Assembly (NCBI GenBank): GCA_051362555.1 | Contig: CM120649.1 | Coordinates: forward strand, 19,792,567-19,856,566 | DNA from: Lingula anatina | Taxonomy: Eukaryota > Animalia > Brachiopoda | Reading direction: 5' to 3' | DNA: 64,000 nucleotides | Shown here: positions 2,251 through 36,931 of the stretch, one piece after another | Position numbering within the stretch: the first letter of the stretch is position 1 | Layout: each line of letters begins with the position of its first letter | The notes under the pieces: generated by a model | What the model was told of the DNA's origin: nothing | What the model saw: only the letters and a program-made list of their open reading frames with translations | Databases searched by the model: none | Made by a program: the position numbers and the translations under genes

Positions 2251-5200
2251 TAGAGTTACTCCATCTGTAACAGTCTTTGAAAATTGAAAAGTCATTCCAT
2301 ATTCCGCCATACCATACCTTTGAAAAGTCATTTCAGATTCTGCCATACATACCATACCTTTGAGCACTGACTTTCCCTTTGTGTGTGATAGTTATATCTA
2401 CAGTAGATGGTTGACAGGTAGTGATCAAAGGTCATTGAAGAGACACCTTTTTGGTGTCAATTTTTCATGGACAAATTATACTTATCTCTTAAAAAAATTA
2501 TCAAAACATAATCCTTGTCCTTAAGTTTTAGTTCAACATGAAGTGTTTTTTTTTTTTTTATTACACTGAAGGTGTGTTAAAAATTTCACATTTAGTCTTT
2601 TTAAGCATTGGTTAGAGACAATTACTAATAAGGCTTCCCCCAGAGGGCCTTCCAGCCATCATTTGAATGGCCTAGGCCTCTAGAGAGAGCATAATATTCA
2701 AAGACAGCTTACAAAAGTTTTCGGTTTGTTTTTTTCGGTTTGCTTGGGTTGGACTCCCTGTAAATAGATGTCCAAATTACAGACCCACATTTTGGACTCC
2801 CTGTATCCCAAATCCTGGGTAAAGTCCCCCTGCTTAAAGATCATTGTGGCCACTTCATTGATGCAGTTTTCTAATGCTTATGTTCTTGTATTGGATTTAG
2901 ATGAGATTACTGTATCATTCTCATGGGATCTGAGTGAGATTTTTACTGCTCATGCAAACTGAACATCATCAATTTTCTGTTCATTATGGAGCTTGATACA
3001 TAGTGGATGGAGTCAAGGTGGATTGGTAAGTTGATTAAATCGACTCAGGTAAGAAAATGGATGAGGTTATTAGGTTACAGCAACTCCATACATTCACAGT
3101 TGAAAATGTGACTTTTTTTTTGCGTGCCAGCACAAGCCTATAACTAGCCATTTTAAATGAGGAGTTAAATTTCTGAAAAAAAAATGACCTTTTTACCTTT
3201 GTAGTTTAGAAACTGCCTAGAACCTAGAAAACCAGCCCAAAGGATGGTATGTCAGTTCCTCCCACCCCCCACCCCCTCCCCCAACCCCCCCCCTCTCCCC
3301 TGCCTGGATGCCTGCTACATGTGCTCTGTTTATTAATTTATGTCAAAAGTATTATAAGGATGTATTTTATAGCTTATAGAAGATTTACATAGCACATCTC
3401 CAAGACTCAGGAGTTAACTGACTTAAAAAATTGATCACAAATACAAGCTATGCAAAAGATTGCCAAGATTCCCATTTTGAATTATGTATTTAATATAATC
3501 TTTTTTTTTTTTTTTTATTATTTTATTTTAATTATTATTTTATTTATTTATTTATTTATTATTATTATTTTTTGTCACTCTACGCTATTTTCTCTCTTGG
3601 CTGCTGTTGTAGAAATCATTTTATTCTTATCCTGCTATTATTGGACTCCTTGTATCCACCTCTCTGGTGTATTACTATATCCTTTGAACTTGATATAACA
3701 AAAGCCGTCCTTTAGCTTACAATAAGTCGATATAAAAAACGGGCTTAAAATAGTAAAAAAAGTAGTCCAAGTTGCCAATTTCTCATGTTTGTGACCTCGT
3801 GATAATCTATAAATGTAATTACAATGTGGCTGTTCTTATTGATCTGTCATTGCAAAGAGTCTAATCATTACACCATCATTAGACTTATTTCAGATCTCAC
3901 ATTGAAATTGATGTGCTATATATAGCCTGAGCTAAATTGACTGCAAATTGTCAATATTTCTTATGTGCATTGTCACCTTCCAGGTCTTGTGATAACAGTA
4001 CATTAAAAAAAAGAAAGAAAGAAGGGGATAAAAAGACTTTAAAAAATGCAATTTTTCGTGAAATTGGTGTCAAACTATTTTTTTTTCTTTTTTTTTTTTC
4101 GCTATCTCAAGCCTTTTATTTAAAAGAAAAGTTGACTTTTTTTTTTAATTCCCAGACATGAGCCAAGAAGTGAGGTTTGGGAATGCCAAACCTGTTGTTC
4201 CATTTAGGTACGATTTATCTTAGAATAAATTTATATTTGAAGAGCTTTTGGTCCTTTTCCTTCTGTACAGGGATTAATAGTCCTTTTTAAAACAATGATT
4301 TGCTGATGGCTTCATCAGTGGTTGAATGTACAGTTGAATTTATAGTTTAATTTAACACTGACTCCTACATAAACTTCAGTCTCTCTGTGGTATATATCCA
4401 ACCTCTAACATCCACTTGACTTCAACTGCACTGGCTTTATTAGCTGTGGAATAACGATGACCTTTTCAGCGTTGTCTCTGACATTCAGTGATAAGAGGGA
4501 ACATCAATGGCAAGTGACAGTGGAGATGAGGCCTGTTCTCTGCCAGAGAATATGGAATTACCTACAGTAATACACAGTTTGATCTGAGATTTGTTTGATT
4601 GAATTGACCTGAAATATATCAGTGGTAGGCATATTCAGATGATTGATTTATTCAAATTGATGTTGAATGCAAGCACCAAATGTAATTGTTTTTTATTCTT
4701 TCTTAACATTTAATTTGAGTACTATGTGTAGTATGTGTGGGGATATTGAATATTGTAGAATCCCAGTAGAGAGAGAGAGTGAAGACACTTGTAAGGGGTC
4801 ATGCAGAATGGAAGATCCAAGTATCAACTGGTCCAAGGATCAAATATGGCGAACCCCACATGAAAGAAAGACTACCTAATCCTGTAATGGTCTCTCCTCC
4901 TCTCACATGCCTCCCCACCTGTCCAGTCAAATGGAGCTAAGATTTAATTACTGTGCCCCTGCAGGGACAATGGGTGGGGAGGTGTGTGAGAAGTGGAGAG
5001 ACCATAACAGGATTAAGCGGTATTTCTTTCATGTAGGGTCAGCCATATTTGATCCTTGGACCAGTTGGTACTCGGATCTTCTATTCTAAATGGCCTTAAA
5101 GTCTTCATGTGATATAATACTTGCAGTAGTAAACTACAAGTTAAGCTTGGCAGGGACTGTAGATGCCATTACCCGTCTTTATTGATTATGGCCCTAGGAC

Positions 5201-14004: not shown

Positions 14005-14264
14005 TGGGACCATTCCCAGACCATATCGTTCTAACTGTGGATCGATCTATCTCCAAGGCAATTCTCGCTAAATTGCAAGCAACTGAAGCGGCTTAGATGT
14101 CTGTCATGCCTAGAAAATCTGCTAAGGGGTAATTAATTATCATTTAGTAGCTTCAGTAGACATGACAGACATCTAAGCCGCTTGAGCTGAGAGCAATTTA
14201 GCGAGAAACCCCTCAGAGATGGATCGATCCTATTAGCTTGATCAAGATATGGGACCCAGTCCTA
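14005..14264. mobile_element. ~260-bp foldback MITE related to the 13210 element, in opposite orientation
   Basis: ~70-bp arms GGATCGATC..TCTCGCTAAATTGC..AAGCGGCTTAGATGTCTGTCATG and its reverse complement; CGGCTTA.ATGTC, AAGGGGTAATTAA and GCAATTTAGCG match the reverse strand of 13210-13424. Confidence 0.7.
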
Positions 14265-17678: not shown

Positions 17679-20600
17679 CTACCTGCTGTCCACGGAAAAC
17701 TTGGCAGGTAACGAGTGCGTCCGTAGCACCACACGCTTGGGTTTTTCATATTTAAATATAATGCTGAACATGTCTCCACCCAGTCTGTTAGCAAGCCAGC
17801 GGTTCTTGAGGACGGCTATCTTCAGGGCCTCACAGGAGAAGGCTGTGGAGTAATTGGTGTGGACTGATCTACCCATACCCTCAAGGACGATGAGATCAGC
17901 CGCCATGTCACGTATCTTCAAACTCAGGTCATAACTGATATACCTAGAATATACAACACAATATCAATCAGTTAATATCTTAATAGATACTCTAGTTAGT
18001 TTTCAAGCTAGACTCCTGTCTTTATGCACAGGCATTCAAAATCATATGAAAACTGATGGAGTCTCATTTTATGCACTTCAGTAGTTTCCTAATATTTTTT
18101 ACCTCATAAATACATTTTCTTCTGTTACCTGAGATCAAGACAAGGAGAAGCCAGTCCAGACTGTTACCTGAGATCAAGACAAGGAGAAGCCAGTCCAGAC
18201 TGTTACCTGAGATCAAGACAAGGAGAAGCCAGTCCAGACTGTTACCTGAGATCAAGACAAGGAGAAGCCAGTCCAGACTGTTACCTGAGATCAAGACAAG
18301 GAGAAGCCAGTCCAGACTGTTACCTGAGATCAAGACAAGGAGAAGCCAGTCCAGACTGTTACCTGAGATCAAGACAAGGAGAAGCCAGTTCAGACTGTTA
18401 CCTGAGATCAAGACAAGGAGAAGCCAGTCCAGATTGTTACCTGAGATCAAGACAAGGAGAAGCCAGTCCAGACTTTTACCTGAGATCAAGACAAGGTGAA
18501 GCCTGACCAGACTCCATTATCACCAGTCTCTCCTCTGCTAGTGCCCGGGAGATCGTCTCAGAGATGGCGGCCACTCTTTTGGCAAGTATTATCACTTCAC
18601 TGTATGTGACATCGTTCAGTGCTGGCATGGTGTTAGCACATAAGATTACCTGGAACAGGTGAGAGAGAGAGAGTATTATAATATCTCACAGGCAATACAG
18701 GTGAGTGAGAGGTACTCCTAGGTTAGAGGTAACACAGATCTTTCTTTCTATATTATTATTTTTCTATTTAATATATTCTTTATTAAGATCATTATAATCA
18801 TGGTGATGTTTTAAAAATTATGCTATCTCATGTACCTTAGTCCCTCTAGAGAGCAGCTCCCTGGCAAATGGAAACACTCCCAGTATAATGTCAATGCCAC
18901 TGTTGTCACAGAAGATGACAGCACAGTTGTGGACAGGACCTTTCAGCCTCTCTAACCACTGCTCATAGTTATCCACCAACCAGGGCCTCTCTGGGAGTTT
19001 AAAAACATAAAGATCATCAATGGGAATCATTTGAGATTGATTTTGTATGAAATAAAGCTAAATTTCATAGGATTTGGAGGAGTGTGGTCAAAAAAAATGT
19101 TGCACACTTTCTAGTTTTGCTTGGCATCATTCCGTTCTGACATCCAAGGTTTTTCAGGGATAATTTCAGAGCCTTTTTTAAAGAATTATAATTAAAATTA
19201 TAATCGTCTTTAAAATTTAATAAGTTTAAGGAGGCATCTTTCTGTCAATCATTGTGTTTGAAAATGGTAAACAAATTGCCTCACTTGTTGAACTGTGAAC
19301 TAAATGAATATGGTGTTATGATAACCCAGTTAGGTAATGTGGTATAGATGTACAAAACCTGGCTATCACACCTCTCTGTGCATTCATCCCAGCATTGTGT
19401 TAGTTGTGACAGCTGGTTGAGAAAGAATGTGACTCTCACCTTGCAGCCTAGCCCTGGCCTCAGTGAACCCAAACTGGCCCTCTTCCATGATGTTCACCAC
19501 TTCCTTGGCTCCCCAGTCAAACACATTCCCCGCCAGCAATCCCTCCACCAGGGCCAGCTGTTTAGCCTGCCAAGACAAGCTGTCTAAAAACTTCAGATGG
19601 TCCTCTAGATGCTTCAAAGCCTGTTCATTTTCAAATTGCTTTTGCTGTAAAAAGCACAAAACATAGGTAAGAACAAATGCCATTGAAATAAGTCACTAAA
19701 TATGATTCATCATTCATTTTTGTTTATTTTCAAGTCTGTTATTACTTTCTGGAAAAGATAACAAATGCCTCTTTAAATATGAAAAAAAATTACAAGATAA
19801 AAAATCATGAAATCAGAGAGTGATATCACCCAAGGACAGAAGTTACTAGGTATCCTAAGGGAAAAGCTTGAGGTATAAATGAAGCAGTTATCAAAGATAG
19901 CTGGGAAGGACTGAGGTCTAAAATACTGATCCCTTCAGGATGCATGGGTTATATCTCACCTGTATATAAGGGTCCGAGAAACTTGACTCCTTTAAAAAAT
20001 GTTCTCTTGTATCTAAAAGACTACGGACTGTTAATGACCCAAATGCTCTGAAAAGTATAATACAAATTACCTTTATATAGATGTACCTTATATAGATTAG
20101 AAATTAATGAAATAAGGGATTATGTATATTTCTTTTGATTTCAACATATTGGATTGATCTGAACAAACTTAGAAAATGATTCTTATTTACATGTGAGTAG
20201 AAGGTCAAATTAGGACATTCCGATCTCATGCAGTGTCTTCTTTTTTTTTCAGCACAAAAAATAGTTTTTTTAGCTTGAAAGTAAAGGTTGCTGATTTTTA
20301 TGTCTTATCTTGTCACATGACTTACGATGGATTTGCCTTAAACTCCTTCAATCTCTGTAAATATTTGTCCTTGAACTTGGCAGCCCTGTCACTGGCGTCT
20401 GCGGAGTCCGGCTGACTGGCAATAGCACGTTCCACAAACTGATAGAAACCAAATATTGATAAGACATTTGTAAATTTGACCATTACAGAGCTTCGTGAAC
20501 AGTGTAGTCTATTTTGAGCCTCGTTCGCTTCTGCCAGTGTACAGGTAGCAACAGTTACTACAATATTCAAGGTCAGAATAACCAATATCATTGTTTTTTT

Positions 20601-23600
20601 TTTTTTTTTGGAGGAATAGATATACCGATATCAAAAATTCAAATTAGAAATTGTATTCAACAAAATCACGAAAATGCTGACTATAACATAATTATATGTA
20701 TTTATCCAGACATTACATAAAATATCCAAAAACTTCATTTAGTTCAAACACAATCATTATCAATCTGAACATGGAGAACTGTCTATTAGAGAAGCTAATT
20801 TTTCTCCCTAGCTTCAACATTCACTCTGATTTCAGTAAAATCCATAATAATAATTATTCCAAGTATTTTGTCACCTTATCAGTGGCTTCCTCAAAGCACT
20901 GCAGCCAGTACTCCCTGGCCGCCGCGTCCTGGGTCAGGTCCACTACATCAGGGAAATAACTGGACGGGTCCAGCAGTAGTGGACAGTTGACCAGTGGGTT
21001 GGAGAACCTGTGTAACTCTAGCATGTCAAACTGGAAAATATAACAGGAGAACCTGTGTAACTCTAGCATGTCAAACTGGAAAATATTATAAGAAATACCC
21101 AAAATATATCTCATACACCATACTTGTCATTTGTTTACAAGAGCTTTAGATTTGGGAACACATATGAGTATAGCCATGAATTAAATACCCGACGGTAAAA
21201 TTAGTAGCCATGAGCACAGGGTTAGACTGCACAGAGAATTTGGATTTACGGTTTGTGGGTCATATCACTGTGCTCATGGCTTCAAACTGAACACTTGGGT
21301 TCTTGATTTGTCTTAAATTTGGGTACTTGTGCTCACATGCCTAATTCATTTATAAGGCCTGTATGTGGAACTGTTTGTTGTTTCATACAATATATCAATA
21401 CATCTATAACTTACTGTGGACTTTCTCTCCCTCAGAGGGACTTTACTGGTCCTAGGACTCTGTAGACCAGAGCTGCCTGCGTAGTCCTCAATCCACGAGT
21501 ACTTGTCAGCCTCTGGAATAAGACAAAAGAGGCATTAATACACATATTCTGATGTCTATTTTTCAATGCTGTGACTTGGCAGCAATGTGTTCCACTAACA
21601 AGTCTGTTAATAGACCATTTTGTGTACATTTAAATTATCTTTTTTGAGAGGCTTATCATCTTCATCAACCAACAAACAGATGTTCTCATTGGCTCAAGTG
21701 TTCTGTTATAATTGGTCATAGATATCAATTGCATTTTCAACTACTACTTATTGTACTGAGCATATCAAACTGTGTTTTATTAAAATAACAATACCAAATG
21801 TACGCATTTGATAAAAGTAATAACTAATACAAATTATTATATTGAAAAAATATTTAGTGAAGTGTGACAAATGAGGGACTGAGGTCCACTTACCCTCCTC
21901 CTCAGCTCCTTTCAGAAAGGCTCCTATGGCCCCAAGGTATCCCTCATGTCTGAGAAATAGAGCTTGGATCTCTCCCTGAAACAGGCAGTGAGTAATTGTG
22001 CTAGGTGTGACAGTGAAGTGGGTAATTGTGTTAGGTGTGACAGTGAAGTGGGTAATTGTGTTAGGTGTGACAGTGAAGTGGGTGATTGTGTTAGGTGTGA
22101 CAGTGAAGTGGGTGATTGTGCTAGGTGTGACAGTGAAGTGGGAAATTGTGCTAGGTGTGACAGTGAAGTGGGTAATTGTGCTAGGTGTGATAGTGAAACG
22201 CATTGTAAAAATACTAGTTTCCCGATTTCTTCCTCATACAGTTCTTTACATATCAAATGTGTCCAATTATTCATTCTACTTGCCAAATAAAAAATGGAAT
22301 ATTTTTTTAAACCATATATTCCACGCATCTAAATATCATAAAAAACTAGCATTTCTGAATGTGAACAAAATTCTATACAACCATAAATTTCACAACAAAA
22401 AGGTGGACATAGTAACCAAACTGCCACAACAAATCCCTTAGATTCTGGCAATAAAATACTCACTTTAGACCAAAAACTAATAGCAAAAGAGATGGTCTGC
22501 ATAGTCATAGGGTGACCTCGGATGAAGAAGCCACCAAAGTAGATTTTCTTCAGCTTGTGGAACTTGGCGTGTAGATAAGCCAGTTGTCCTATGTCATTGC
22601 TAATACTGATCAGAAGACTCTTGGCAATGTCTTCCGACTTGAAGTCTGCATCTGACATAACAAACAGATAAGAAATTTCAAATATGATAGTTCTGATGTG
22701 GAGATTTGTGTAAATCATTTTACATGCTATTTATTAATTGTTTATTTATTTATTAAGCCCATATGGAACATCTGAAGGAACCCTATGCTATGGTTAATAC
22801 ATAATATATATATATATATGCACATAATAAGAGATTTGCATGTGAGCTGGTCACAAGAGTGGAAAATCCCATCTCTTCCTAGCCCAGTGATATGTAACTA
22901 GTGGCAGGCTTCACCTACACTGTCTCTCCTGTGCCGACCGAGCTGCTCTCCCAAAACTGCTGGCAATGACATCAGAGGCCAGGCCCACCCTGTTGTAAGC
23001 TCCTCCATAGATGTCCTTCACCAACATGTCAATGTTCCTATGGTCTCCCTTTGCTGCCAGTTGTAACAGCTCATCAAAGCCCTGAGTGTAGGAAATAACA
23101 ATAATAAGGCAGCGAAGCTGTCAAATGTACAGACAAAAAGCTGTAACAGCTCATCAAAGCCCTGAGTATAGGAAATAAAAGTAAAATGACCATTAAATAA
23201 CAAATAGTCTCTGTAAGTCAAGATTGGCAGGGCAAATGTGCCAGATGTGACAAAGATGGCCGATTGTGTTAGTTGTGCCACTAGTTTTAACATCACACTG
23301 TAAATACCTTAGCCTTGGTGAGCAGAGATCCAAGACCCCAGAACGTTCCTCCTCCCATAGATGTGCCTCCAACTCTCTCATATTGACCATCTGCCTCTAC
23401 CTGCAATATTACAGCAGCACTGATCAATAAATTTAAAATTGCACAACTTATCATGTAGGTCAATATTATCTTCATGACTTTGACATTGTGATTGCTCATT
23501 GACTGGTATTCATATTACGTCTTTATTTTGTTTTCATAATTATAAATATAGAAGTTTTTCAAAGTGTATAAGACTCATTTCATGTTATTTATTTATTTTT

Positions 23601-26600
23601 TGTTTTTTTTTCTTTCTTGAAAGTAACAAATAATTCATATATATATACAGTGTTTCCCCTGGCTTTCAAGCTCTGCGAGGTGGTAGGCAGTCCGCGATCC
23701 CAGCAATACTAGGGGGGTCGGGGGGCATGCCCCCCTGGAAAATTTTTTAAATCGAGGTGCAATTTGGTGCATTTTAGGGTATTTAGAACTGATTTTTTTT
23801 ACATTTTATGTGGCACTGAATTGTCTTGTTTTAGATGTTTTGAGGAGTAAATTCAGTAATGACATAACAAAGGTTTGGACAAAATTTATTTTCCAGTCTG
23901 TGCATTCACTCAGTTTAGTCCTTTTCAGTTTATAGAACATACTCTTTCAAAAAAAGAAAAAAAGTTAATACTTTCAAAAAAAAAAAAAAAAGTTAACTAC
24001 TTTAATACTTACAAGAAACGAGAAAAAGGGCTTACTACATTGAATTATTTTTAAATTGACCAAAAAGTTGATAAAATATGTTGTTTTTACCGTTTTCACA
24101 TTCTTGTGAAAGTAACTGGTCAATTGACTTTGCGTGTGGGAGCGCTTCATCCTAATATAAAACTGCCGCAAAAGTTCTCTCTCTTGTCGTTCAGCGCAAA
24201 GCGACTCCCGCTACTACTTATACGTAGTTTGAGATGTAATTTATAATCAACAACTTCAAACACCGTTAAATGAATGCCTCGGAATTAAAGAGATGAAAAT
24301 CACACTTATCATCAATTTTAGTTCTTCGTTTATTCATTTATATGGTTCTATTCAGTCATGGAAATTCATATTCAATGCATAAGTTTCCACGCGAAATACT
24401 GACGTGACCCAGTTTTACAACGCTACTGCTTTCACAAAACTCACCCATAAATCAATAGAAAATCTTCTCCAAGTTTATAAAATCAACGAAGTTCACTTTA
24501 TTTGCTCCTTTTTTATCAGTGAATATTCGTAAACTATAAAAACAAACAACAGGCGGTCTGAATTTCGGAACATGAAGTGATAGAGAAAGTGTATTCTAGA
24601 CACGTGATTAAATGGTGTCAAGAACAGTTGCCTCGTTTCGCTCTGTTTCTTATACTTCAAATAAGGCACAGAACTGCGAAAACGAGGCACTCACAGGGAG
24701 ATAGTAACTGCTGGTTATTTTTAGGCATACGCACATGCGTCTTTCCGTTACTACTAAATCAAGTTCTCAGAAGCATGGGATTACTTATGTAAACAGAAAA
24801 TGCCATATTTGCTTAGAAATAAATATAATTTTCAGTTAGCATGAGTGACAATATACTTTGTTGTTCCATATAGTCCAGCGAGGCGGTGCTTTTGACAAAT
24901 TTCAGCGAGGCGCTTGCAAATATCATCGAGGCAGGCGCCTCAATCATTTAAGTGCAGGGGAAACACTGTATATATATATATTCCTTATGATCTTTTTTAA
25001 CTGAAATACTAAATTATAATATATTATCTCAAGACCCAATCAAAGAGGTATTTCAACATTATTTAACCAAGACCCTCACCTTCAATATGCTCACTCCAGA
25101 CCCTATATTGACCAATAAATACGGGAATATTTCAGGGTCTGAACCCACAGCCTGGAAGTCGTACTCGGGGTTGCCATGTTTGACATAGGTGAATGCCTCG
25201 TCAGAGATGTTCTTCAGCAGAAAGTTGCAACCTTTTATCAAACACTCCATCTCATCTTCTTTATCTACCCTGGAGTATACACATTACACATCTCATCTTC
25301 TTTATCTACCCTGAAGTATACACATTACACATCTCATCTTCTTTATCTACCCTGGAGTATACACATTACACATCTCATCTTCTTTATCTACCCTGAAGTA
25401 TACACATTACACATCTCATCTTCTTTATCTACCCTGAAGTATACACATTACACATCTCATCTTCTTTATCTACCCTGGAGTATACACATTACACATCTCA
25501 TCTTCTTTATCTACCCTGGAGTATACACATTACACATCTCATCTTCTTTATCTACCCTGGAGTATACACATTACACATCTCATCTTCTTTATCTACCCTG
25601 GAGTATACACATTACACATTACACATCTCATCTTCTTTATCTACCCTGGAGTATACACATTACACATCTCATCTTCTTTATCTACCCTGGAGTATACACA
25701 TTACACATCTCATCTTCTTTATCTACCATGGAGTATACACATTACACATCTCATCTTCTTTATCTACCCTGGAGTATACACATTACACATTACACATCTC
25801 ATCTTCTTTATCTACCCTGGAGTATACACATTACACATCTCATCTTCTTTATCTACCCTGGAGGGTGCAATGATGGATACACATTTAACACTTATGGTGT
25901 CAAGGTTCTGAATCAGGAACTATAAATTTAGAAAACAACTGTAAACGAAAGGCCTCTTCTAGAAAGTGAACTATATATAACTGTGTGAATGCACGCAAAT
26001 TTTGTTATAATTTATCATGCACAATAATCAAAACAAAAAACAAACATACTCACAAACCTAACACTTACTGTACCCCTAATTTACTGGTTATCAAATCCTT
26101 GTACTTGAAGGCTCCCCCTCCTGTGACCTTGATGACCTTGTTCTTCAGGTTCTCCTTATTTGCTGGCAGTAGGTTTCCCTGGATGAAGTCCAGGCAGGTC
26201 TCTATAAATTTACTCTCAAACTTCACAAAATGTAAGGCATCTTGGTTCTCAATGTCCTCCACAACTGTGTATATATGCTCTGCATTCTGGAGAAAAATAT
26301 AAATTAAGTTGGTAACGGAGAAAATTGAAAAACTGAAGCACTGAGTGTGATGGTAGGGTGGGTGCAAAGGTGGGTGGGTATGGCAGTGGGGTAGGGGTGA
26401 CAGTGGGGTAGGTGGGCTATGGGGTGTGTGTGTGACAATCAGGTGGGTGTGACAGGTGTGTCCTTGAAGATTAAGTACATGATATCAATGGTATCTCATC
26501 ACTGTACAATTTGCTAGAGCTCAAAATTATTTAACATAAAACTTAAACAGACCTGGCAACATATAACAGTCCTCAGAATGCACAGAACTTGTCTAATGCC

Positions 26601-27695
26601 TTATGTTAAAACAATAGAATAATCTCAGTATACAATGGGAGTAATAGTCCTAAATAGTATGCAGAATGCACAGAGTTATCCACTCTACTTAAAACCATCT
26701 TCTTGGACTAGTTCAGCAGCTCTACTATGTGTACCTCCAGATTATCAAGGCCCTCTGCCAGTAGTGACTTCTTCCTCTGTACTGTGGAAATGTAGGCAAG
26801 CTTGGCCAGGGAACCACCTCAATGGAATGAAATGAAAACACATGGGAAAAATGATATAAAATTCTCCAGTGGAGTGAAGGCAAGAATGAATACCATTTCC
26901 ACCTTTTACCTTTATCCTTCAAATTCTAGCACAGCAGAATCAGCTGTCACCCTGATAAGTTAATGAATCTAAAAACTACATTAAATAGGGAAGACTGGGG
27001 ATAGTTGGACCCCGGGGTAAGTTACCCCCCCCCCCTCCCCCATCAATTTATAACAAAGTAACTATATGCCTTACGGGGTAAAAGAATTTATCACATCATT
27101 TTGTAAAGTGACCGTATCCAATAGTGCTAAGAAAGCATTGGCAGTGAGTCCAAATGAAATAATTTAGCATCTAAAAGTAACTTTATTAAAGAGACTTGAT
27201 GGGGGGTCAACTTACCCCGGGGTCCAACTAGCCCCGATCTTCCCTAACTCAAGAATACCACAATACTGCATGGGTACCCAGTCTACATTATAGATAACAA
27301 ACAAGCAAATAAATAAATAAATAAAATGAAATAAAAAATATCTATAATAATAAAAATTAAAAACAAAAATTATTCGGAAAATTGGAGATTTTTAAAAAAA
27401 TTTCAAAGAAAACTTAATATTTTCTTTTGAATTATGGTAAACAAACGTGGTACTTTTAAGTATCTATATGTTTTGGCATTCAGTAATCGATCTAGGTGAC
27501 AGCCGAGTACGAGCATGACTTCTTCAAGTTCCTGTAAAACTCCAGTACATGCACTTATTAAACAACAGAGCAATCTGACAGTCGACAGCTTCAAAACTGA
27601 CCTATATCAATTGCAAATCTTTTTGCATTTTTCATATTTCTGAATGCCTCTGCATGTGAGAGCTCAATGCTCTTGGCATATTGCGATTCAGCCAT
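17679..27695 (-). CDS. PANK4: Pantothenate kinase 4 (type II PanK domain fused to DUF89/ARMT1-like 4'-phosphopantetheine phosphatase), 16 coding exons
   Basis: Exons approx 27695-27602, 26817-26735, 26286-26069, 25269-25080, 23400-23308, 23081-22919, 22651-22464, 21975-21894, 21510-21415, 21030-20875, 20439-20326, 20047-19960, 19646-19440, 18989-18835, 18649-18480, 17943-17679; peptides [120 protein letters not shown]. Confidence 0.96.
18122..18512 (-). repeat. 39-bp tandem array copying the PANK4 exon 15 donor junction (10 donors including the real one)
   Basis: Minus-strand unit GTAACA+GTCTGGACTGGCTTCTCCTTGTCTTGATCTCAG matches the last 33 nt of the exon plus the donor. Confidence 0.95.
21001..21086 (-). 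repeat. 45-bp duplication of the PANK4 exon 10 acceptor junction
   Basis: ATATTTTCCAG/TTTGACATGCTAGAGTTACACAGGTTCTCC occurs twice; exon starts at 21030 or 21075. Confidence 0.93.
21990..22200. repeat. 30-bp minisatellite (7 copies) abutting the PANK4 exon 8 acceptor
   Basis: Unit GTAATTGTGCTAGGTGTGACAGTGAAGTGG, ending ~15 nt from the AG at 21977-21976. Confidence 0.95.
23062..23178 (-). repeat. Duplication of the PANK4 exon 6 acceptor junction (80-nt spacing)
   Basis: TTATTTCCTAYACTCAG/GGCTTTGATGAGCTGTTACA at 23081 and 23161. Confidence 0.92.
23648..24968. mobile_element. Non-autonomous DNA transposon (hAT-like), 1.3 kb, in PANK4 intron 4
   Basis: TIRs CAGTGTTTCCCCTG / CAGGGGAAACACTG, TATATATA on both sides, subterminal GCGAGG repeats, no transposase ORF. 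Confidence 0.82.
25248..25863 (-). repeat. 41-bp tandem array (about 15 copies) copying the PANK4 exon 4 acceptor junction
   Basis: Minus-strand unit TGTAATGTGTATACTCCAG/GGTAGATAAAGAAGATGAGATG = 19 nt intron + first 22 nt of the exon. Confidence 0.96.
26988..27244. mobile_element. 257-bp MITE with ~43-bp TIRs and TA target duplication (Tc1/mariner-type) in PANK4 intron 1
   Basis: TA-GGGAAGACTGGGGATAGTTGGACCCCGGGGTAAGTT ... AACTTACCCCGGGGTCCAACTAGCCCCGATCTTCCC-TA. Confidence 0.85.
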
Positions 27696-28245: not shown

Positions 28246-31200
28246 ATGACTGCTTGCTGTTACACGACCGTCGCCTGCTTAATTTCCCTGAGCCTGCTGG
28301 CTAGTATAACAGGTAGTTTTATTTTTAATTTTTCTGTTAAATTACGGACCTTGCAGTGATTTATATTTGGTCAATTAATTGAAGATCTAGAGGTCATCTG
28401 AAAGTATTTATAACCAAACACTAAATAATTATGTTAAATAACATTTTATTAAGGGCTTTAAATTATGTGAACTGTGTCAGTCTTAGCTGTTACTTTTGAT
28501 TTTTAATAATATAATATAATCTTTATTGAGCACTAAAATGCATACATATTACATTTTACAGGCTCTCTACACTAGTCATAACAACTTAGCAACAATTATA
28601 CAAAGCTATACAATACTTAGAGCGGATTCTCAACGAATTGAGCCAGGCTCCACAAAGCCGGTGACCCAAAAATGGCGGACGTACATGAAAGAAAACCGCC
28701 CAATCCTTTAATAGTCTCTCCGCCTCCCCCCACGTCGTCCCTGCGGGATACAGTAATTAAATCTCGGCTCCGTTCGCCATGCGGAAGCTACCTGAGAAAT
28801 ATTAACTGCGCATGCTCATCAGTTAAACTCGTGGTGAAGAAAGCATGGCGGCAGAAGGTGTTCGAAGGAAAAAAGCTCTTCTGTTTTATTATCTGTCAAA
28901 ACAGAGACGAAAAAGGAATGAATTGGCCCGTAGAGCAGCAACGAATCGACTATCTACGGAGATAATATCACCAGAGATATTCACAGAACTACACAGCCCC
29001 AGTAGACGTAGTTGGAGGTTGGAGCCGAGATTTAATTACTGTACCCCGCAGGGACGACGCGCGGGGAGGCGGAGAGACTATTAAAAGATTAGGCGGCTCC
29101 TCCTTCATGTACGTCCGCCACCTTTAGGTCACCGGCCCTGCAAAGCCCGGCTCAATTCGTTGAGAATCCGCTCTTATTGAATGATTACTGGGAAGCAGCA
29201 CAGAATAAAACGACTATTGCTATTGGTGGGTGTGTCGTTTTTTCAAACTTTCAGTTATATATAGATATAATGTTCTCAAACACAATTCACTTTTTGGACT
29301 GAGCAGCCACTGAATTTTTTCATGATCTGTTTTCTGCTCAGGAGGTATCATTAATCTAATTCTTCTGACACTATGTTCTTCACATTTCAGTAAAAAGTGG
29401 ATCTCCGTTTCAATTTCATTACAGTGGGGGCACTTGCGATTTTCAGTAGGGGTTTTAGGGGATGTATAGCGGCCACGTTCAATTTCTAATTCGTGGTCAC
29501 TAATCCGCATTTTTGCAATAGTCTTCATTTCTGATGGGGTGACTTTCATTGACAGATATTTTTCAGGGGTGTAAGTTTTTTTAAGTAATCTGTATGTCCT
29601 GAGTTTACTGTAGTTATCACTTTCCAGGTCTTTCCAAAATAGTTCCTCAATTTTATTGTTGATAGCATCTCTTAGGTTTTCAAAGTTATCTAGTGTTTGT
29701 GTATCAGTTTTATGACCCAGACCCCAACACTGTATAAATGTTCTTATTGATTCAGACCAACAGGGTCCTTTTTCTTTTTGCTCCTGTTCATAAATGTTTT
29801 TGACCAATCTGCTGGAAGGTAGCTCTTTGAGTCTGGCGCTGTATCTCTGTGTCTGTTTTGCAATATCAGAATAGAGTGGAAATCTTCCAAATTCAGCTCT
29901 ACAGGCATTGTTCATAGCATTTTTTTGTACACCTAGTGCCCATTTGCACATTTTTAGATGTAGTTGTTCAAAAGGAAATTTATTTAGTTTTGTAAGTGAC
30001 ATTTGTTTTTCCTTGAATATTTCTTCAGACCAAACTTCACATCCATATAGTAAGATGGGCTTGATGGTTTTGTCAAAAAGTTTTAAGTTGAGTGTGGGAG
30101 ATGTTATCTTGTTTGAGGACAGGGCTGTTTTAAGAGCAAAAGTTGCTTTTAGAGCCTTTTTCTTTAAATTTTCAATTGCTTTTTTCATTGAACCTGTATT
30201 TGTAAAGGTTAAACCCAGATAATTGTACTCTTTTACTGATTCAATGGCTATATTATTTATTGTAAATGATGTTGCAGAGTCTAATTTTCCTTTTTTATTA
30301 AATATCATGATCTTGTACTTTTTTTCATTTATGTTTAGTTTCCACTTTTTACAGTAAGCTTGCAGTGTCGTTAGTTTATTTTGTAGACCATCTCTGGATG
30401 CCGATATTAGGACAAGGTCGTCAGCATACAAGATGTGATTCAGTCCATTAATTGCACCGGGCTGGTTGCAAGAAAGGAAAGCCTCCTTGAGGTCATCCAT
30501 GTATAAATTAAAGAGAGTGGGACTAAGGTTATCTCCTTGGCGGATTCCTAATCTTGATAGAAATGGGGTAGTGTAACCTAAACCTACCGAGATGCCTAAT
30601 CTGGTGTTACTATACATGCTTTTTATGACACGGTAGAATTTCCCCCTAATCCCGAGTTTAAGTAATTTCAGTAATAGTCCCTTGTGCCATACTGAATCAA
30701 AGGCTTTTCTCATGTCAATGAAACAGGCATACAGCTTTTTGTTTTGATTGAGATACCTGTTGACTAGTGATTTCAAAGTAAAGATATGATCTGTTGTTCT
30801 ATAACCTGGCCTGAAGCCTGCTTGTTCTTCACTTAATTTGTTTTCATTGTTAATATGTTGGATGAGCCTGTGTGCTAAAACTGAATTAAATAATTTCCCT
30901 AAGCAACTAGTTATGCAGAGGCCTCTATAGTTTTCAGGGTTCATATGTTCTCCTGATTTAAAAAGCGGGATTATAATTCCTAGGTTCCAAGATTCAGGGA
31001 TTTCAGATGTATTTAGCACCATGTTAAATAGTTTTGTGAGCACAACTGCAAAATACTGTGCTCCTGCTTTCAACATTTCATTTCTCACCTTGTCTTCCCC
31101 AGGTGATTTCCCATTTTTTAGATATTTAATGGCATTTTTAACCTCTTTCACTGTAATAGGTTTGTCAAGTACTGCTTCACCAGGTAGGCTTTCATAAGAT

Positions 31201-34200
31201 TTAATTTCATTATCTAAGGCATGGTCACCTTCAGGAGGGATCCCACACAAATGGTAGAAGTGGCTAAACCATGTATCTGGGCTAATTAAGTTTTGCTGTT
31301 CTTTATCATGGTTTAGTTTTTTAAGGGTTTGCCAAAATGCTTTGGGGTTATTTTCTTCAAGGTTTAACAGGTCATTTAAGAGTGCATTTTTGTGGTTATG
31401 TTTCTTTTGTTTAATTACTTGTTTATACTTTTTTGCCACTTCATGGTATGTGCAAGAAATGAAGTTATTTTTTGGGTTATTTTGAAGAAGTTTGCCTAGG
31501 TACTTTACATTTCGTCGTATTTCAGCACAAGTGCCGTCAAACCACGGTTGTTTTCTCGTTCTATTAGGTCTTTTTTTAGGCTTATTTTCAGTTCGCTTCT
31601 TAATACGCAAGGATGATTTAGCAGCCTTTTCCAAGATGTTTGTAAGTGAATTGCATGCATTGTGCACACCTTCTTTTGTAGCAGGGAAATTGGTAAGTTG
31701 CAGGGAGCAAATGTCATTCATCATTGTCTCATTTTCTAGGGCCTCTATGAACTTTTCACGTGAGTTTGACTCCCAAATGTAGCGGTCACTGAATCCCTTT
31801 ACTTGCTGTGTTTGTGCAGACTGTTTGAAACCTGTTATTTGTAATGTCAGATCTAACCTGCAGTGATCTGATAAGTAATCTATTGGATGTACTGTAAAAT
31901 ATTTGATTTTGCTCAAAAGCCCATCACTAACAATAGCGTAATCTACTGTGCTGCAACCCTTTGTGTTGTAACAGGTGAAATATCCTAAAGAATTGCCTCG
32001 TATTCTACCATTTAGAATACACAAGTTACTACTAATGCACAGTTCTAGTAGGGTTCTTCCCTGGGGATTCACCACACTGTCTAGGTTATTTCTAGGCTTT
32101 AAGTTCCTGTCACTGATGCGGCTGTCAGGCATAGGACCAATCATATTATCATCTTTCACAAAGTCTTGCAACATCCCTGTTCTGGCATTAAAGTCACCTA
32201 ACAAGCAAACTGAGCCCAGGGCTTTAAACTGTGCAATTTCTTCCTCTAGTATATCAAAAGTTGCTTCATCAGATGGAGAATTGCTTGGTTTTATGTATAC
32301 TGCACAGAGAAATATATCATTTTGCAGTCCAAAATGTTTACCAGACAGTCTAATCCACAACAAGTTCTCACTCTTACTATTAAACATCTTGATTGCATCT
32401 CGGAACTCTTTCTTATAGTATATCACAATTCCACCTGAAGGTCTACCTCTAACTTTCTTTTTTCTTCTAACTTTAAGGAAGTGGGCATGTGAGCCAGTAG
32501 GCAAGACAACTTTTGACCTTTCAGTTGAAAAAGTTTCCACACATACAATTTGATTTTTTGCTGCATTTTCTAAGGCAGGTGCCACTCTGCTTTCTATTTT
32601 GAAGGATGTACCATATCAGTGTATGAAATGGCCGCCTGCCCGCCAGCCCGAGGCTGGTAACTTTCAGGCCGGGCGGGTAAGATTTGCAGATTACCCGCCC
32701 GACGGGCTGGCTGTTTTTACAGCCTATTTTCACCTTTTATTTTGTCTATGTTCACAACAATTTCAGCAAAATATCAAACAAACTCACTGTTTTCACCCAC
32801 TTTCATAGAAGCAAAGAACTATCCATAGCTTGCAATCAAACGCTCGTATCGAAATGTAACCAACAGTCTCCCTCTCAGTGGCCTCGTTTTCGAAGTTCTG
32901 TCTGTGTGATATGAAGTTGAAAGACAATTTGAAACGAGGCACAATGTTCTTAACCAGCTTCAGTGCACAGCAGATAACGTTACGTCGTTGTTTTGTGTAG
33001 AGGAGATACCGCGAGTAGCAATTTGTAGGTTGAGAGTAATAAAAATGTGAAAGTATAAAAAGTTATGATATTGATTAAATCGACTTATAGGTACATGAAG
33101 TGCTTATAATCAACAGTAATATAGGCAATGGAGGCAAATAAAAGGAGAATTTTACAAAAAATTTGAATCCCAAAATTATGAGTGAATGTACGAGTTTAAG
33201 CCATGCGTCAGATGTAGTTCTTTTCCCACGTGCTTTCATCTTGGGCTGTCAAAAATGAAAAAATTCTATCAAGTCCGATAGAGAATTTGAAAAACAATTG
33301 AGGAAAGAAATAAAACTAACAAAGATTACGACAGAACCAAACGAAAGAGAACAAATTGGGACCAATGGAAAGGTGACTTCGATTTGCAATTAGTCGAGCG
33401 GCAACATTTTTTTTCGTAAAACCGTAACTCGAAAGTATCACGCAGTGCGACCGAGCGCAAGCATCTCGATCCAATAACTCGTCCATACTCGCCCCATATA
33501 AAAATGATATTGTAGCCTCTATGTGATATATATAGCTATTCTCAATAAGCAATGCTTTCGAGATACGGGGCCCTGCAGGACTGTCTATGGGCCATTAGCG
33601 TGCAGGACCGTCCCCGACCGCTTTTTAAAGCTTAAAAGCGATATTCAAAGGGACCCTACGTGCTAAATTTTTTCTTCTTTATTGTTAGCACAGAGATCGA
33701 TTTATTTGACAACAATATATATTTTTTTGGTCATACTTGTTGCTATACAAAAAAGCAAAAATTATGATCAAATTATATCACGAAATCGGAATAAAAGTTA
33801 TGAATAAATTATTGACGAAGAAATGAGACAGCCTGCAAGGTGAACATAAACTGAATTGACTACCCCCGCCCTCCCCCGACTGCTAAAGGGCCCTGAAAAT
33901 TTTTGGTATTTTAGATGGTGAATGGTGCCATTTGGTATGGTTTAGAACTATGATTCAACTAGTGAAAATCTTATTTCAAGAGGTGAGTTTTTTTTACAGA
34001 AATTAAAAGGGGGGCGTCAGGAGCCCCTTGACCCCCTCTAAATCCAACACTGACAAGGTATCATTCAGTAGAAATTCCAAAATATTTCTAAATTTCCATG
34101 CATAAGGCATGATATTGCCCTTTCATTTCCAAATTACTCTCCCAAGAATGCATTCTAGACCCCCTCAGCATACCTCTCTTAACTCTAGGGGTTATCATAA

Positions 34201-36931
34201 ATAGGGCAGGTAACTACATGGCCGGGCTGGTAACTTTTCAGAGTTACCTGCCCGGCGGTCTGGCTAGTAATTTCCTTGAATTTCATACACTGACCATATG
34301 TATAAAAAAGGGGGGGGGGGGGGGGGGGCAGGTACTCTGAAATTATACTGCAATGTACAGTTTTAAATTTCACATTTATAGTAGAGTCTAAAATATGGAA
34401 AAAAGTTCTAGCAAATTTTATCTTATTAGATTTATCATTTATCATATATTTAATAATTATTTTATTATTTATATTATTAATTTATATATATATTTCTTTT
34501 TTCATCTCTACTCTCAGCTGTTATCTTCGAACTATGTTATTATAAATAAAAAAGCATTCTATTATATATATCATCTTGTTCTTCAGCTGACCCAGACGCC
34601 TGCTTCTTTGTGGACCTCGTCTCCCGCTGCAGGACAACTGTGAAACAATATAATGTCACCATAACATCCACTATCAACAAGTGTCACCAGCCAATAGATG
34701 TCACTGTAGAGCTACAGGTAAGTTAATATATAATATATAGATGTCACTGTAGAGCTACAGGTAAGTTAATATATAATATATAGATGTCACCATAGAGCTA
34801 CAGGTAAGTTAATATATAATATATAGATGTCACCATGCAGCTACAGGTAAGTAAATATATAATGTATAAAGATTTCACTGTAGAGCTACAGGTAAGCTGA
34901 TATATAATATTTAGATGTCTCCATAGAGCTATAGATTAGTTATAGCCTATTAATGCCACTCTGGGGTTTACGGTTTTCCTTAATTTTAGAATATTTAGCC
35001 CCTCTTTGTTTGACAAGAAGATAACAATTATGAAAAAAATCTCCAAAAATATTTATGGCGTAAAAAAATTGCAATTTTTATCTTTCATTTAAGAATGACC
35101 AGCCACCTTTCACATGGAAGCACACGTTTGCCAATGATGGGGAGACACAGCGGATTGGTAACTACACAGAGGAGACGTACATGCAGTTTCAGATTGACAG
35201 ATATTTCTGGCAGGACAAACCAGAGCTTAGGATGGCTGTAAGGGAAAATGATTTTTTGGGGAAAAAACTAATTAATTTACTGATTTTGATGTTGAGAGAA
35301 ATGCGACCAGGGAAAAGACTGTCATCCTCTTTTTAGCAAAATGTCTGTTTAGATTCATTAAGGTCTGGTTTCAAACACAACTCCGATTGTAATAGGTGTC
35401 CTTAATTTTTGCTGGTAGATTATAAGATAGACTAGACCATGTTGAGCACTGTCAGTGGCTGTTAAAGCACTAACTCCCAGACTAAAGTGAGTGTTGTTTG
35501 TTATTCATAGGCCTGGATTATAATGTCTAAAGAAGGAGTGAACAGGTTTCTGAAGACCTCCACTATGGTTAGCACAGAAGACTGTCACGGTGAGCCTCTA
35601 TGTGTGTGTGAGTGAGAGAAAGAGAGAGAGAATAAGACCATGGCTATATTATTTAAATTTAATCATCTTTTATGGGGGCCATTCCTTCAGATTTCTGCAT
35701 ATCATCTCTTTTCTACATATTAATATTATCCTCTTTGCCGTGAGTAATTTTCATTGCATAAGAAGAAGTCTTATTTCAAACTATTTTGCCTATTGTGTAA
35801 AGTATACTATGTCTGTCACCAGGTGGCACCACCAACCCTGTAGCTGCGGCCCTCGCTGGGATATTTGTAACTGTCACCGTCATCAGCCTCGGTGTTGCTG
35901 TGGGCTTTGTTTGCTACAAAAGACGCAAACATTCCAAACGTCGCGAGCAGTTAATCTTAAACATGGAGGCCCCAGCAGTAGCTGAACCATTCGCAGACGC
36001 AGGTCAATCCTCTGCCAACAGAAGACATCATCAGGACAAAAAAGATGCTCCACAAGTGCCAGGTGGATCAAGTGATAAAATTAAAGAAAAAGTTTCAGTG
36101 GCACAGAAAACAACTGTAGATGGGGCTGTGAGCTCTACTGCACTTCAGCCAAGAGAAGCTGATGTCAAGTTTCAGAGCGAGTCTGTCCAAGACAGTATCA
36201 ATGCCAAACTGCCCTCTGGTGGCCAGGGGCCCCTTGATTTAGAAGGGGCTGTGGGTTATAGCTTAAACCCTTCACACTCAGGAAAGGTTCCTTTCACTCC
36301 TTTTGATACAGGGGGTGGTTCCCGAAAACAAAAACACAGGAGTAAACAATCTCACAGGGGAGATGGACTTTATGGAGGAGACATCTATTCGTGCCAATAT
36401 GGCAGTCAGTTAAGAAACTCAGGAGGTTTGGATAATAACCAATTTGATCACTCAGTCCATTCTGGAAGAGGGCGAAGAGGAAAAAGAAAAAAAGGAGGAC
36501 AAAGATTCTCAAATCCACCCAGACAAGGGGTGAGCGTTCATCAAGATGGCGGTGAAAAATTTGCAGAAGAACTTTCTGTGCGCCTCTCAAGTCTTCAGAA
36601 TGAAGAGTTCAAAAGCAGACAAACAAATGGCTTATACCCTGGCCCAGAGGAGCCTGGGTCTCTCGAGGACCACCCATCTTTGGGAGATGATCATATACTT
36701 ATTGCCTCTTTGCACAGGGACCCTGCAGGGCTAGCTGTCTCAGACAGCACACGGCAGGCTGCAGACATGACCAATGGGGCACGGACAGACAGGGCCGCCT
36801 CAGGCCACTCTTTCAGTTATCTGGAACCAGCTGAGGTGGCTCCTTCTAGTGTGACAGTCACGGATAACCCCAATGGGTATGGCGGTGCTAAACCAAAGAG
36901 AAAATTACCTCAAATGCAGCCAGTTGTCTGA
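28246..36931 (+). CDS. Unrecognised single-pass type I membrane protein (~510 aa): signal peptide, ~120-aa ectodomain with four Cys, TM helix, long low-complexity cytoplasmic tail
   Basis: Phase-compatible GT-AG exons 28246-28312 (MTACCYTTVACLISLSLLASIT), 34587-34717, 35094-35237, 35511-35589, 35823-36931 (PVAAALAGIFVTVTVISLGVAVGFVCY-KRRKH then the 343-aa ORF). Confidence 0.8.
28620..29173. mobile_element. 554-bp MITE with 152-bp TIRs and TTA target duplication (PIF/Harbinger-type) inside the LINE 3'UTR
   Basis: TTA-GAGCGGATTCTCAACG ... CGTTGAGAATCCGCTC-TTA; arms 28620-28771 and 29021-29173. Confidence 0.88.
29220..32585 (-). CDS. LINE ORF2: APE-like endonuclease (N-terminus missing), reverse transcriptase, C-terminal CCHC motif
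   Basis: 1121-aa uninterrupted ORF; EN motifs SGGIVIY, LLGDFNARTG, STVDYAIVS, SDHC; RT motifs EQAGFR, FIDMRKAFDSV, GIRQGDNLSPTLF, YADD, YNYLG; CPHC..HFLLKC. Confidence 0.95.
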   Translation of the reverse strand: MAPALENAAKNQIVCVETFSTERSKVVLPTGSHAHFLKVRRKKKVRGRPSGGIVIYYKKEFRDAIKMFNSKSENLLWIRLSGKHFGLQNDIFLCAVYIKPSNSPSDEATFDILEEEIAQFKALGSVCLLGDFNARTGMLQDFVKDDNMIGPMPDSRISDRNLKPRNNLDSVVNPQGRTLLELCISSNLCILNGRIRGNSLGYFTCYNTKGCSTVDYAIVSDGLLSKIKYFTVHPIDYLSDHCRLDLTLQITGFKQSAQTQQVKGFSDRYIWESNSREKFIEALENETMMNDICSLQLTNFPATKEGVHNACNSLTNILEKAAKSSLRIKKRTENKPKKRPNRTRKQPWFDGTCAEIRRNVKYLGKLLQNNPKNNFISCTYHEVAKKYKQVIKQKKHNHKNALLNDLLNLEENNPKAFWQTLKKLNHDKEQQNLISPDTWFSHFYHLCGIPPEGDHALDNEIKSYESLPGEAVLDKPITVKEVKNAIKYLKNGKSPGEDKVRNEMLKAGAQYFAVVLTKLFNMVLNTSEIPESWNLGIIIPLFKSGEHMNPENYRGLCITSCLGKLFNSVLAHRLIQHINNENKLSEEQAGFRPGYRTTDHIFTLKSLVNRYLNQNKKLYACFIDMRKAFDSVWHKGLLLKLLKLGIRGKFYRVIKSMYSNTRLGISVGLGYTTPFLSRLGIRQGDNLSPTLFNLYMDDLKEAFLSCNQPGAINGLNHILYADDLVLISASRDGLQNKLTTLQAYCKKWKLNINEKKYKIMIFNKKGKLDSATSFTINNIAIESVKEYNYLGLTFTNTGSMKKAIENLKKKALKATFALKTALSSNKITSPTLNLKLFDKTIKPILLYGCEVWSEEIFKEKQMSLTKLNKFPFEQLHLKMCKWALGVQKNAMNNACRAEFGRFPLYSDIAKQTQRYSARLKELPSSRLVKNIYEQEQKEKGPCWSESIRTFIQCWGLGHKTDTQTLDNFENLRDAINNKIEELFWKDLESDNYSKLRTYRLLKKTYTPEKYLSMKVTPSEMKTIAKMRISDHELEIERGRYTSPKTPTENRKCPHCNEIETEIHFLLKCEEHSVRRIRLMIPPEQKTDHEKIQWLLSPKSELCLRTLYLYITESLKKRHTHQ
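32617..34292. mobile_element. Non-autonomous DNA transposon, 1.68 kb, 13-bp TIRs, 7-bp target duplication (P-like or hAT-like)
   Basis: ACCATAT-CAGTGTATGAAAT ... ATTTCATACACTG-ACCATAT; GC-rich subterminal GGGC(G/T)GGTAA / TTACC.GCCCG repeats at both ends; no transposase ORF. Confidence 0.85.
34694..34940 (+). repeat. 43-bp tandem array copying the exon 2 donor junction of the membrane protein gene
   Basis: ATAGATGTCACTGTAGAGCTACAG/GTAAGTTAATATATAATAT: five copies with GT donors plus one decayed copy. Confidence 0.94.

Follow-up and report, generated by a model that had tools for sequence, protein, structure and literature searches.

The passage of an ADAR edit from RNA to cDNA and then into a chromosome is already known, from avian retroviruses and from insertions made by L1 in cells. 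A-to-G hypermutated avian retroviruses have been described (Felder, 1994; Hajjar and Linial, 1995; both as summarised in the review PMC12925331), and in cultured cells 3 of 235 pseudogene insertions made by human L1 are reported to be ADAR-edited (PMC11702581, bioRxiv 2024). Human L1 RNA itself has been reported as unedited (PMC5224506). In the RNA of Xenopus tropicalis, palindromic Harbinger repeats are described as hyper-edited (PMC5625713), and DNA editing of LTR retroelements by APOBEC is documented (PMC4866542, PMC2873906). As for the brachiopod Lingula, four ADAR-like gene models are given in Table 1 of PMC6651903, and AID/APOBEC-like deaminases are reported to be present as well (PMC5889660). 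In the literature searched, whose coverage is incomplete and takes in few subscription papers, germline-fixed ADAR edits in retrotransposon copies, or in an invertebrate LINE, were not found.

The locus described here lies in a stretch of 64,000 nucleotides of Lingula anatina DNA (the window), and consists of a hairpin-forming MITE inside the 3'UTR of a LINE (Table 1). An earlier note on this DNA had proposed that the mismatches between the arms of the hairpin are traces of RNA editing. The reading favoured here, which we consider likely, is that they are for the most part fossil ADAR edits, which arose in a hairpin of LINE RNA before retrotransposition fixed them in germline DNA; an ADAR origin of the marks, whatever the route, is held with greater confidence, as very probable.

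Table 1. Features of the hairpin, the retrotransposon that carries it and related elements (window coordinates)
Feature	Coordinates	Strand	Evidence and remarks
MITE, 554 bp	28620..29173		In LINE 3'UTR; 47 nt past the stop codon, 115 nt short of the LINE 3' end
MITE target-site duplication, TTA	28617..28619		Second copy at 29174-29176
3' arm in LINE RNA	28620..28771	-	Arm alignment, run comparison; - strand G at 28650, 28651 (family DNA A) and at 28667, 28701, 28706 (unpolarised); C-to-T on the - strand at 28748
Loop, 249 nt	28772..29020		Mixed differences from the family majority; internal control
5' arm in LINE RNA	29021..29173	-	Arm alignment, run comparison, context; - strand G at 29060, 29062, 29097, 29137, 29138, 29141 (family DNA A), at 29044 (family letter) and at 29099, 29100, 29103, 29121, 29122, 29148 (unpolarised)
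Decayed relative, same MITE family	4797..5095		Arms unpolarised: 7 A.C, 6 G.T, 5 transversions; outgroup
Non-LTR retrotransposon (LINE)	28505..32548	-	Truncated at the 5' end, within the endonuclease domain; 3' tail rich in A/T
LINE target-site duplication, 3' side, 10 bp	28495..28504		Longest word common to both ends
LINE target-site duplication, 5' side, 10 bp	32549..32558		Match to 28495-28504
LINE ORF2 (EN part, RT, C-terminal CCHC-like motif)	29220..32548	-	Uninterrupted to the stop codon
Predicted first exon of host gene, signal-peptide-like	28246..28312	+	Translation, GT donor; putative gene model

That the arm mismatches run one way is a confirmed observation. A global alignment of the two arms (28620-28771 and the reverse complement of 29021-29173), with which blastn agrees, returns the counts that had been made by hand, namely 16 transitions, one transversion (C.C) and one indel, and all 16 transitions are A.C on the + strand, with no G.T, which makes them G.U pairs on the - strand, the sense strand of the LINE (two-sided binomial p=3.1e-5). 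The even split expected elsewhere is indeed found: seven other inverted pairs of the window, one of which includes the focal left arm, pool to 33 A.C, 35 G.T and 43 transversions, and the two structures that the note had used as controls lack polarity (2 A.C and 1 G.T in the element at 26986; 8 and 6 in the hairpin at 14005). Compared with the pooled background, 16 of 17 mismatches in a single class have a p of about 1.6e-7. Folding predicts an almost unbroken stem for the - strand (-365.7 kcal/mol) and a weaker structure for the + strand (-316.3 kcal/mol).

Positions 28380-29800 were compared with three public DNA runs (X1, X6 and X10) and one RNA run of the same species (X15), four of 21 listed runs. 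The comparison covers the best 40 of 323 substitutions, 12 of 53 indels, 15 of 34 joints and 24 of 1999 pieces; the ranking appears to be by share, and absence from these sets is weak evidence. In run X6 the depth over the MITE reaches 1.3e5-3.2e5 in several bins, versus 78 on unique flank, and contigs of the same run join 28615 to 29173, skipping 557 bases, that is, the 554 of the element plus 3, as an empty site would. The depth, together with a joint that matches the element plus one duplication, indicates a high-copy MITE inserted by DNA transposition. The features of Tourist-like PIF/Harbinger elements are present: TIRs, a 3-bp TTA/TAA duplication, short length, no coding sequence and many copies, TTA/TAA targets being described as typical of PIF/Harbinger MITEs (PMC4561436). 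The 25 terminal bases are intact and, to judge from these ends and the TTA duplication, the element would in principle be mobile. Its loop departs from the majority letters of the family at some 12 sites, which makes the element a distinct lineage. The decayed relative in the window is 71-81% identical to the focal arms and has a short loop. The exact arm pattern had no match in metagenome and viral contigs, the exact loop pattern had none in metagenome and prokaryote genome contigs, and Rfam gave none at its gathering score over 28400-29400.

The LINE contains an open frame at 29220-32615 in which Pfam recognises RVT_1 and Exo_endo_phos_2; homology to full-length relatives begins at 32549, about residue 35 of 1150-1200, and the best relatives, which are 36-44% identical, carry no clade name. 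An ORF with EN and RT, 5' truncation, a 3' tail and a target-site duplication are all present, and on these features the copy is a true product of target-primed reverse transcription (TPRT). It differs from a 3698-nt contig of X1 at 2 of 605 bases (0.3%), and the alignment of the X6 flank contig ends at 28504, which is read as an apparently empty site at this position in the X6 animal. Such a divergence and the empty site imply that the LINE is young and probably polymorphic. At this divergence about one arm mismatch would be expected and 17 are observed, so the differences came with the donor MITE or in one burst. As a separate matter, a G of the window at 29226 marks a sub-lineage of the LINE; its depth is 17.8 in the low-depth run X1 and about 41, half that of unique sequence, in X6, and falls to 0 in X10, which suggests that recent amplification differed greatly from one animal to another.

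A predicted + strand gene for a membrane protein harbours the LINE, in antisense orientation, in its first intron; the next in-phase exon of this gene would be near 34587, and its last exon, with a hydrophobic segment, is predicted at 35822-36931. Given this arrangement, the polarity follows the LINE and not the host transcript, and transcription of the host gene, or editing of its pre-mRNA, predicts the other sign. The same intron holds, 68 bp past the 5' end of the LINE, a 1676-bp non-autonomous DNA transposon (32617-34292) that has perfect TIRs of 13 bp and a duplication of 7 bp. The membrane-protein gene (28246, +), whose start is about 250 bp from the LINE tail, is arranged head to head, at about 550 bp, with a PANK4-like gene (27695, -) that has Pfam Fumble and ARMT1-like domains and two exons 100% identical to Lingula anatina PANK4. 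Intron 1 of the latter contains a 261-bp MITE (26986-27246) with 46-bp TIRs, and tandem arrays at 21957-22227, 25155-25961 and 18044-18589 (units of 30, 41 and 39 bp) start at its exon-intron borders, the 30- and 41-bp units appearing to be copied from an exon edge. Farther away, 14039-14230 is a loopless palindrome of adjacent 96-bp arms that are 79% complementary and unpolarised.

The direction of change can be read from the letters of the family in DNA for half of the pairs. Among the best 40 of 323 substitutions, 8 of the 16 pairs are polarised, seven as A-to-G on the LINE strand and one as C-to-T (p=0.035; 8:1 and p=0.02 when 29062 is included), and the other 8, namely 28645, 28667, 28671, 28672, 28690, 28693, 28701 and 28706 with their partners, have no entry. 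The window has C where the family has T (A on the - strand) at 28650 (238374/238374 in X6, 140/142 in X1), at 28651 (238279/238374 and 142/142) and at 29097 (132963/134640, 29637/32434 and 102/102 across the DNA runs). At 29060, T reaches 93% in X6 and 85% in X1, but only 128/98998 (0.1%) in X10, where a related family dominates. The family A at 29137, 29138 and 29141 is thin, as it comes from one or two X6 contigs of depth 40-48; an X1 contig of depth 9 has a letter other than T at 29141, and the deeply covered partners of these three sites have no reciprocal entry among the best 40 of 323. The C.C mismatch resolves into two changes, one at 28730 and an A-to-G at 29062 (97-100% T in three runs). 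The opposite direction is seen at 28748, with G in 81842/84837 in X6, 358/358 in X10 and 30/30 RNA reads, so that in the pair 28748/29044 the window has changed C-to-T on the LINE strand relative to the family majority. The earlier note had named C-to-T change as the contrary reading; it applies to this pair, the other seven polarised pairs being A-to-G. Sites 29099 and 29103, without an entry under the depth of 134640 at 29097, lean towards family letters, whereas the decayed relative, with A in both arms there, leans the other way. At 28672 and 28701 that relative speaks for editing, at 28706 and 28667 against it, which at about 74% identity is weak evidence.

The changes are also confined to the arms, as had been anticipated. 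Sites with C in the window and T in the family are 8 of 13 in the arms versus 4 of 27 outside (p=0.008), and differences in the loop and the LINE body are mixed and unpolarised, both within the best 40 of 323; the loop differences from the family majority comprise, among those listed, one A-to-G on the - strand (28942), the rest being other transitions or transversions.

Depletion of G on the 5' side of the edited A is reported as a shared ADAR motif, together with a preference of invertebrates for A downstream (PMC5625713), and mollusc data on editing context are given in PMC6651903. When the 16 sites plus 29062 and 29100 are restored to A, a 5' G is found at 1 of 18 sites versus 20 of 60 unchanged A (p=0.015); narrower sets give 2/16 (p=0.09) and, for sites supported by DNA, 0/8 (p=0.05). 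The single 5'-G neighbour claimed earlier is therefore right if 29100 counts as a former A, and becomes two of 16 if it does not. The sole 5'-G site of the larger set, 29044, is the partner of 28748, in the pair that DNA classes as unedited. On the 3' side, G occurs at 6/18 restored sites versus 12/60 unchanged A, with no significance by eye.

The search for live editing in RNA, which had been suggested as a check, gave direction-dependent non-T reads at 28650 and 28651 in X15, one run from a different individual. At 28650, non-T was found in 57/78 first-mate-plus versus 0/10 first-mate-minus reads (p=1e-5), and at 28651 in 65/78 versus 0/10 (p=3e-7), the reads being not fully independent. By the usual convention, which is assumed here, first-mate-plus reads represent RNA of the - strand, and over the outer arms nearly all reads are of this kind (68 versus 13, 34 versus 3, 23 versus 2). 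The shares at 29137, 29138 and 29141 (31/33, 27/33 and 36/36) are too high, since mapping bias attracts edited reads to this arm. Family letters at 28625 (45/48) and 29168 (36/37), and loose ends and flanks that are not LINE sequence, imply that the reads come from other copies of the MITE; that the same reads carry non-T and family letters is judged from position and depth. There are 31 T>C places in RNA versus 16, 19 and 14 in the three DNA runs, and ORF2 reads are near zero. The signal is as predicted from editing of both arms in sister copies; since RNA and DNA come from different animals, a genomic variant at one expressed locus could also account for it.

An A-to-G burst that is limited to the duplex and matches sites edited in RNA is best explained if ADAR acted on a LINE transcript with the MITE in it, which was then reverse transcribed. 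Reverse transcriptase reads inosine as G, a matter of known chemistry. In the sequence of events that may be proposed, an active LINE family would have received the MITE, by DNA transposition, in the 3'UTR of one of its copies, the insertion being visible here and the event itself probably having taken place in a source copy elsewhere. The transcript would then fold into the predicted 152-bp stem, and ADAR would deaminate adenosines in both arms, at most 18 of the 78 in the stem or about a fifth. The LINE reverse transcriptase would read I as G during target-primed insertion, of which the target-site duplication and the 5' truncation are the traces, and the edited copy would be inherited, a minority of the G.U pairs being ordinary C-to-T changes or family variants. 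ADAR editing has direction, arm confinement, 5' context and the strand-dependent RNA signal in its favour, and the idea of an edited and then retrotransposed transcript holds in large part but not in its full extent, since 28748/29044 is C-to-T and 29099 and 29103 may be family letters.

The step that would carry the MITE along with the LINE transcript has the TPRT product in its favour; against it, the common LINE allele is free of the MITE. The joint of this empty allele has a depth of 1751 in X6, about 22x that of the unique flank, the majority of LINE copies are without the MITE, and behind the near-identical LINE contig of X1 (depth 17.8) no MITE of the window type follows at similar depth. 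No source copy with both LINE and MITE was seen, and no junction piece occurs among the 24 of 1999 pieces listed; in a polymorphic family, a rare source copy that these animals happen to lack is plausible. The absence of such a copy, the many MITE-free LINEs and the mobility that the intact ends would confer speak for real edits that arrived by another path, the edited MITE having been retroposed elsewhere and then cut and pasted here, or cDNA of an edited transcript having converted the arms. This is nevertheless unlikely: if the MITE had transposed again, the odds of finding its polarity on the LINE strand would be no better than even, the near-zero ORF2 reads of X15 count against it, and the path through the LINE needs no extra mechanism.

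General processes that could make arm mismatches one-way were tried and rejected. Decay of CpG touches 4/16 sites versus 29/91 in the background; APOBEC, which changes G to A on the element sense strand, has 0 of the 16 pairs in its class; an asymmetry due to host-gene transcription would act on the wrong strand; and a plain enrichment of the LINE strand in G disagrees with its ORF2, which is only 18% G and 38% A.

Another proposal is that the donor MITE already carried the asymmetry, or that selection maintains an RNA hairpin on one strand, where both A-to-G and C-to-U changes leave a tolerable G.U pair. The C-to-T change at 28748, with up to four more pairs that may be of the same kind, the nearly unbroken stem predicted for the - strand, and the distinct lineage that the loop differences indicate can all be cited for it. 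This proposal is improbable, as the polarised sites lean strongly to A-to-G, CpG decay is insufficient, and neither the depletion of 5' G nor the RNA match is predicted by it; moreover, the LINE is too young, and too often without the hairpin, for the latter to be a structure that it needs.

The edited allele is found independently in none of the DNA runs X1, X6 and X10, which would suit an artefact in which edited RNA reads, or a sequencing error linked to the hairpin, put G letters into the reference. The X6 animal appears to lack the LINE here and X1 is of low depth, so this absence is expected; the locus has almost no RNA reads, and polishing with RNA is improbable because 84-100% of RNA reads differ from the window at 28625, at 29168 and in the loop, and yet its own letters are kept there. 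An artefact is accordingly very unlikely. Least credible of all is a chance draw from ordinary mutation, for although some 16:0 splits will turn up when very many hairpins are scanned, the pooled comparison, which includes the deficit of transversions, and the independent evidence from direction, context and RNA oppose it.

If fossil editing of the LINE RNA is the correct explanation, this is a natural germline case of RNA edits turned into inherited DNA, in which the partner arm records the ancestral state and the RNA of sister copies provides a live comparison at the same sites. It would also mean that edited LINE RNA was present in cells of the germline or the early embryo, and that inosine-rich RNA can complete retrotransposition. 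The polarity of G.U from arm to arm offers a cheap test, free of any reference and applicable to any genome, with which the frequency of fossil editing can be counted. A more speculative extension, which we consider rather unlikely, is that Lingula LINEs routinely capture fold-back MITEs, that ADAR loosens the stem for reverse transcriptase, and that edited MITEs re-enter the genome, where transposase can mobilise them again. RNA editing would then be a recurrent germline mutagen with predictable sites, shaping families of DNA transposons, and the RNA sites with the heaviest editing would turn into fixed differences in DNA; an earlier round of the same process might underlie the variable purine run at 29097-29103.

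What sets this locus apart is a DNA-transposon hairpin in the LINE's own 3'UTR, the record in the partner arm and the site-level match to live RNA. As in the pseudogene insertions reported for L1, the proposed edits are clustered within an inverted repeat of a 3'UTR and would have been written by a LINE reverse transcriptase; that case, as described, is somatic, relies on induced L1 and concerns Alu pairs in cellular mRNA copied in trans (PMC11702581), whereas here a natural invertebrate genome, the LINE's own RNA and one self-folding MITE of DNA-transposon origin are involved. With the avian retroviruses the locus would share A-to-G change within an inverted repeat of an RNA that was then fixed as DNA by reverse transcription, although nearly 50% of A are reported as changed there, and in this non-LTR element at most 23% (18/78). 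The reports on APOBEC also describe deaminase marks that retrotransposition fixes in the genome and that are recognised by strand bias, but these are sense-strand G-to-A changes along the element, reported as vertebrate-specific, and not A-to-G changes within a duplex. In Xenopus, as probably in Lingula, a self-folding repeat of Harbinger type is a prime target of ADAR and G is depleted upstream; there the edits are described in RNA only, and in Lingula the proposed edits stand in the genomic sequence.
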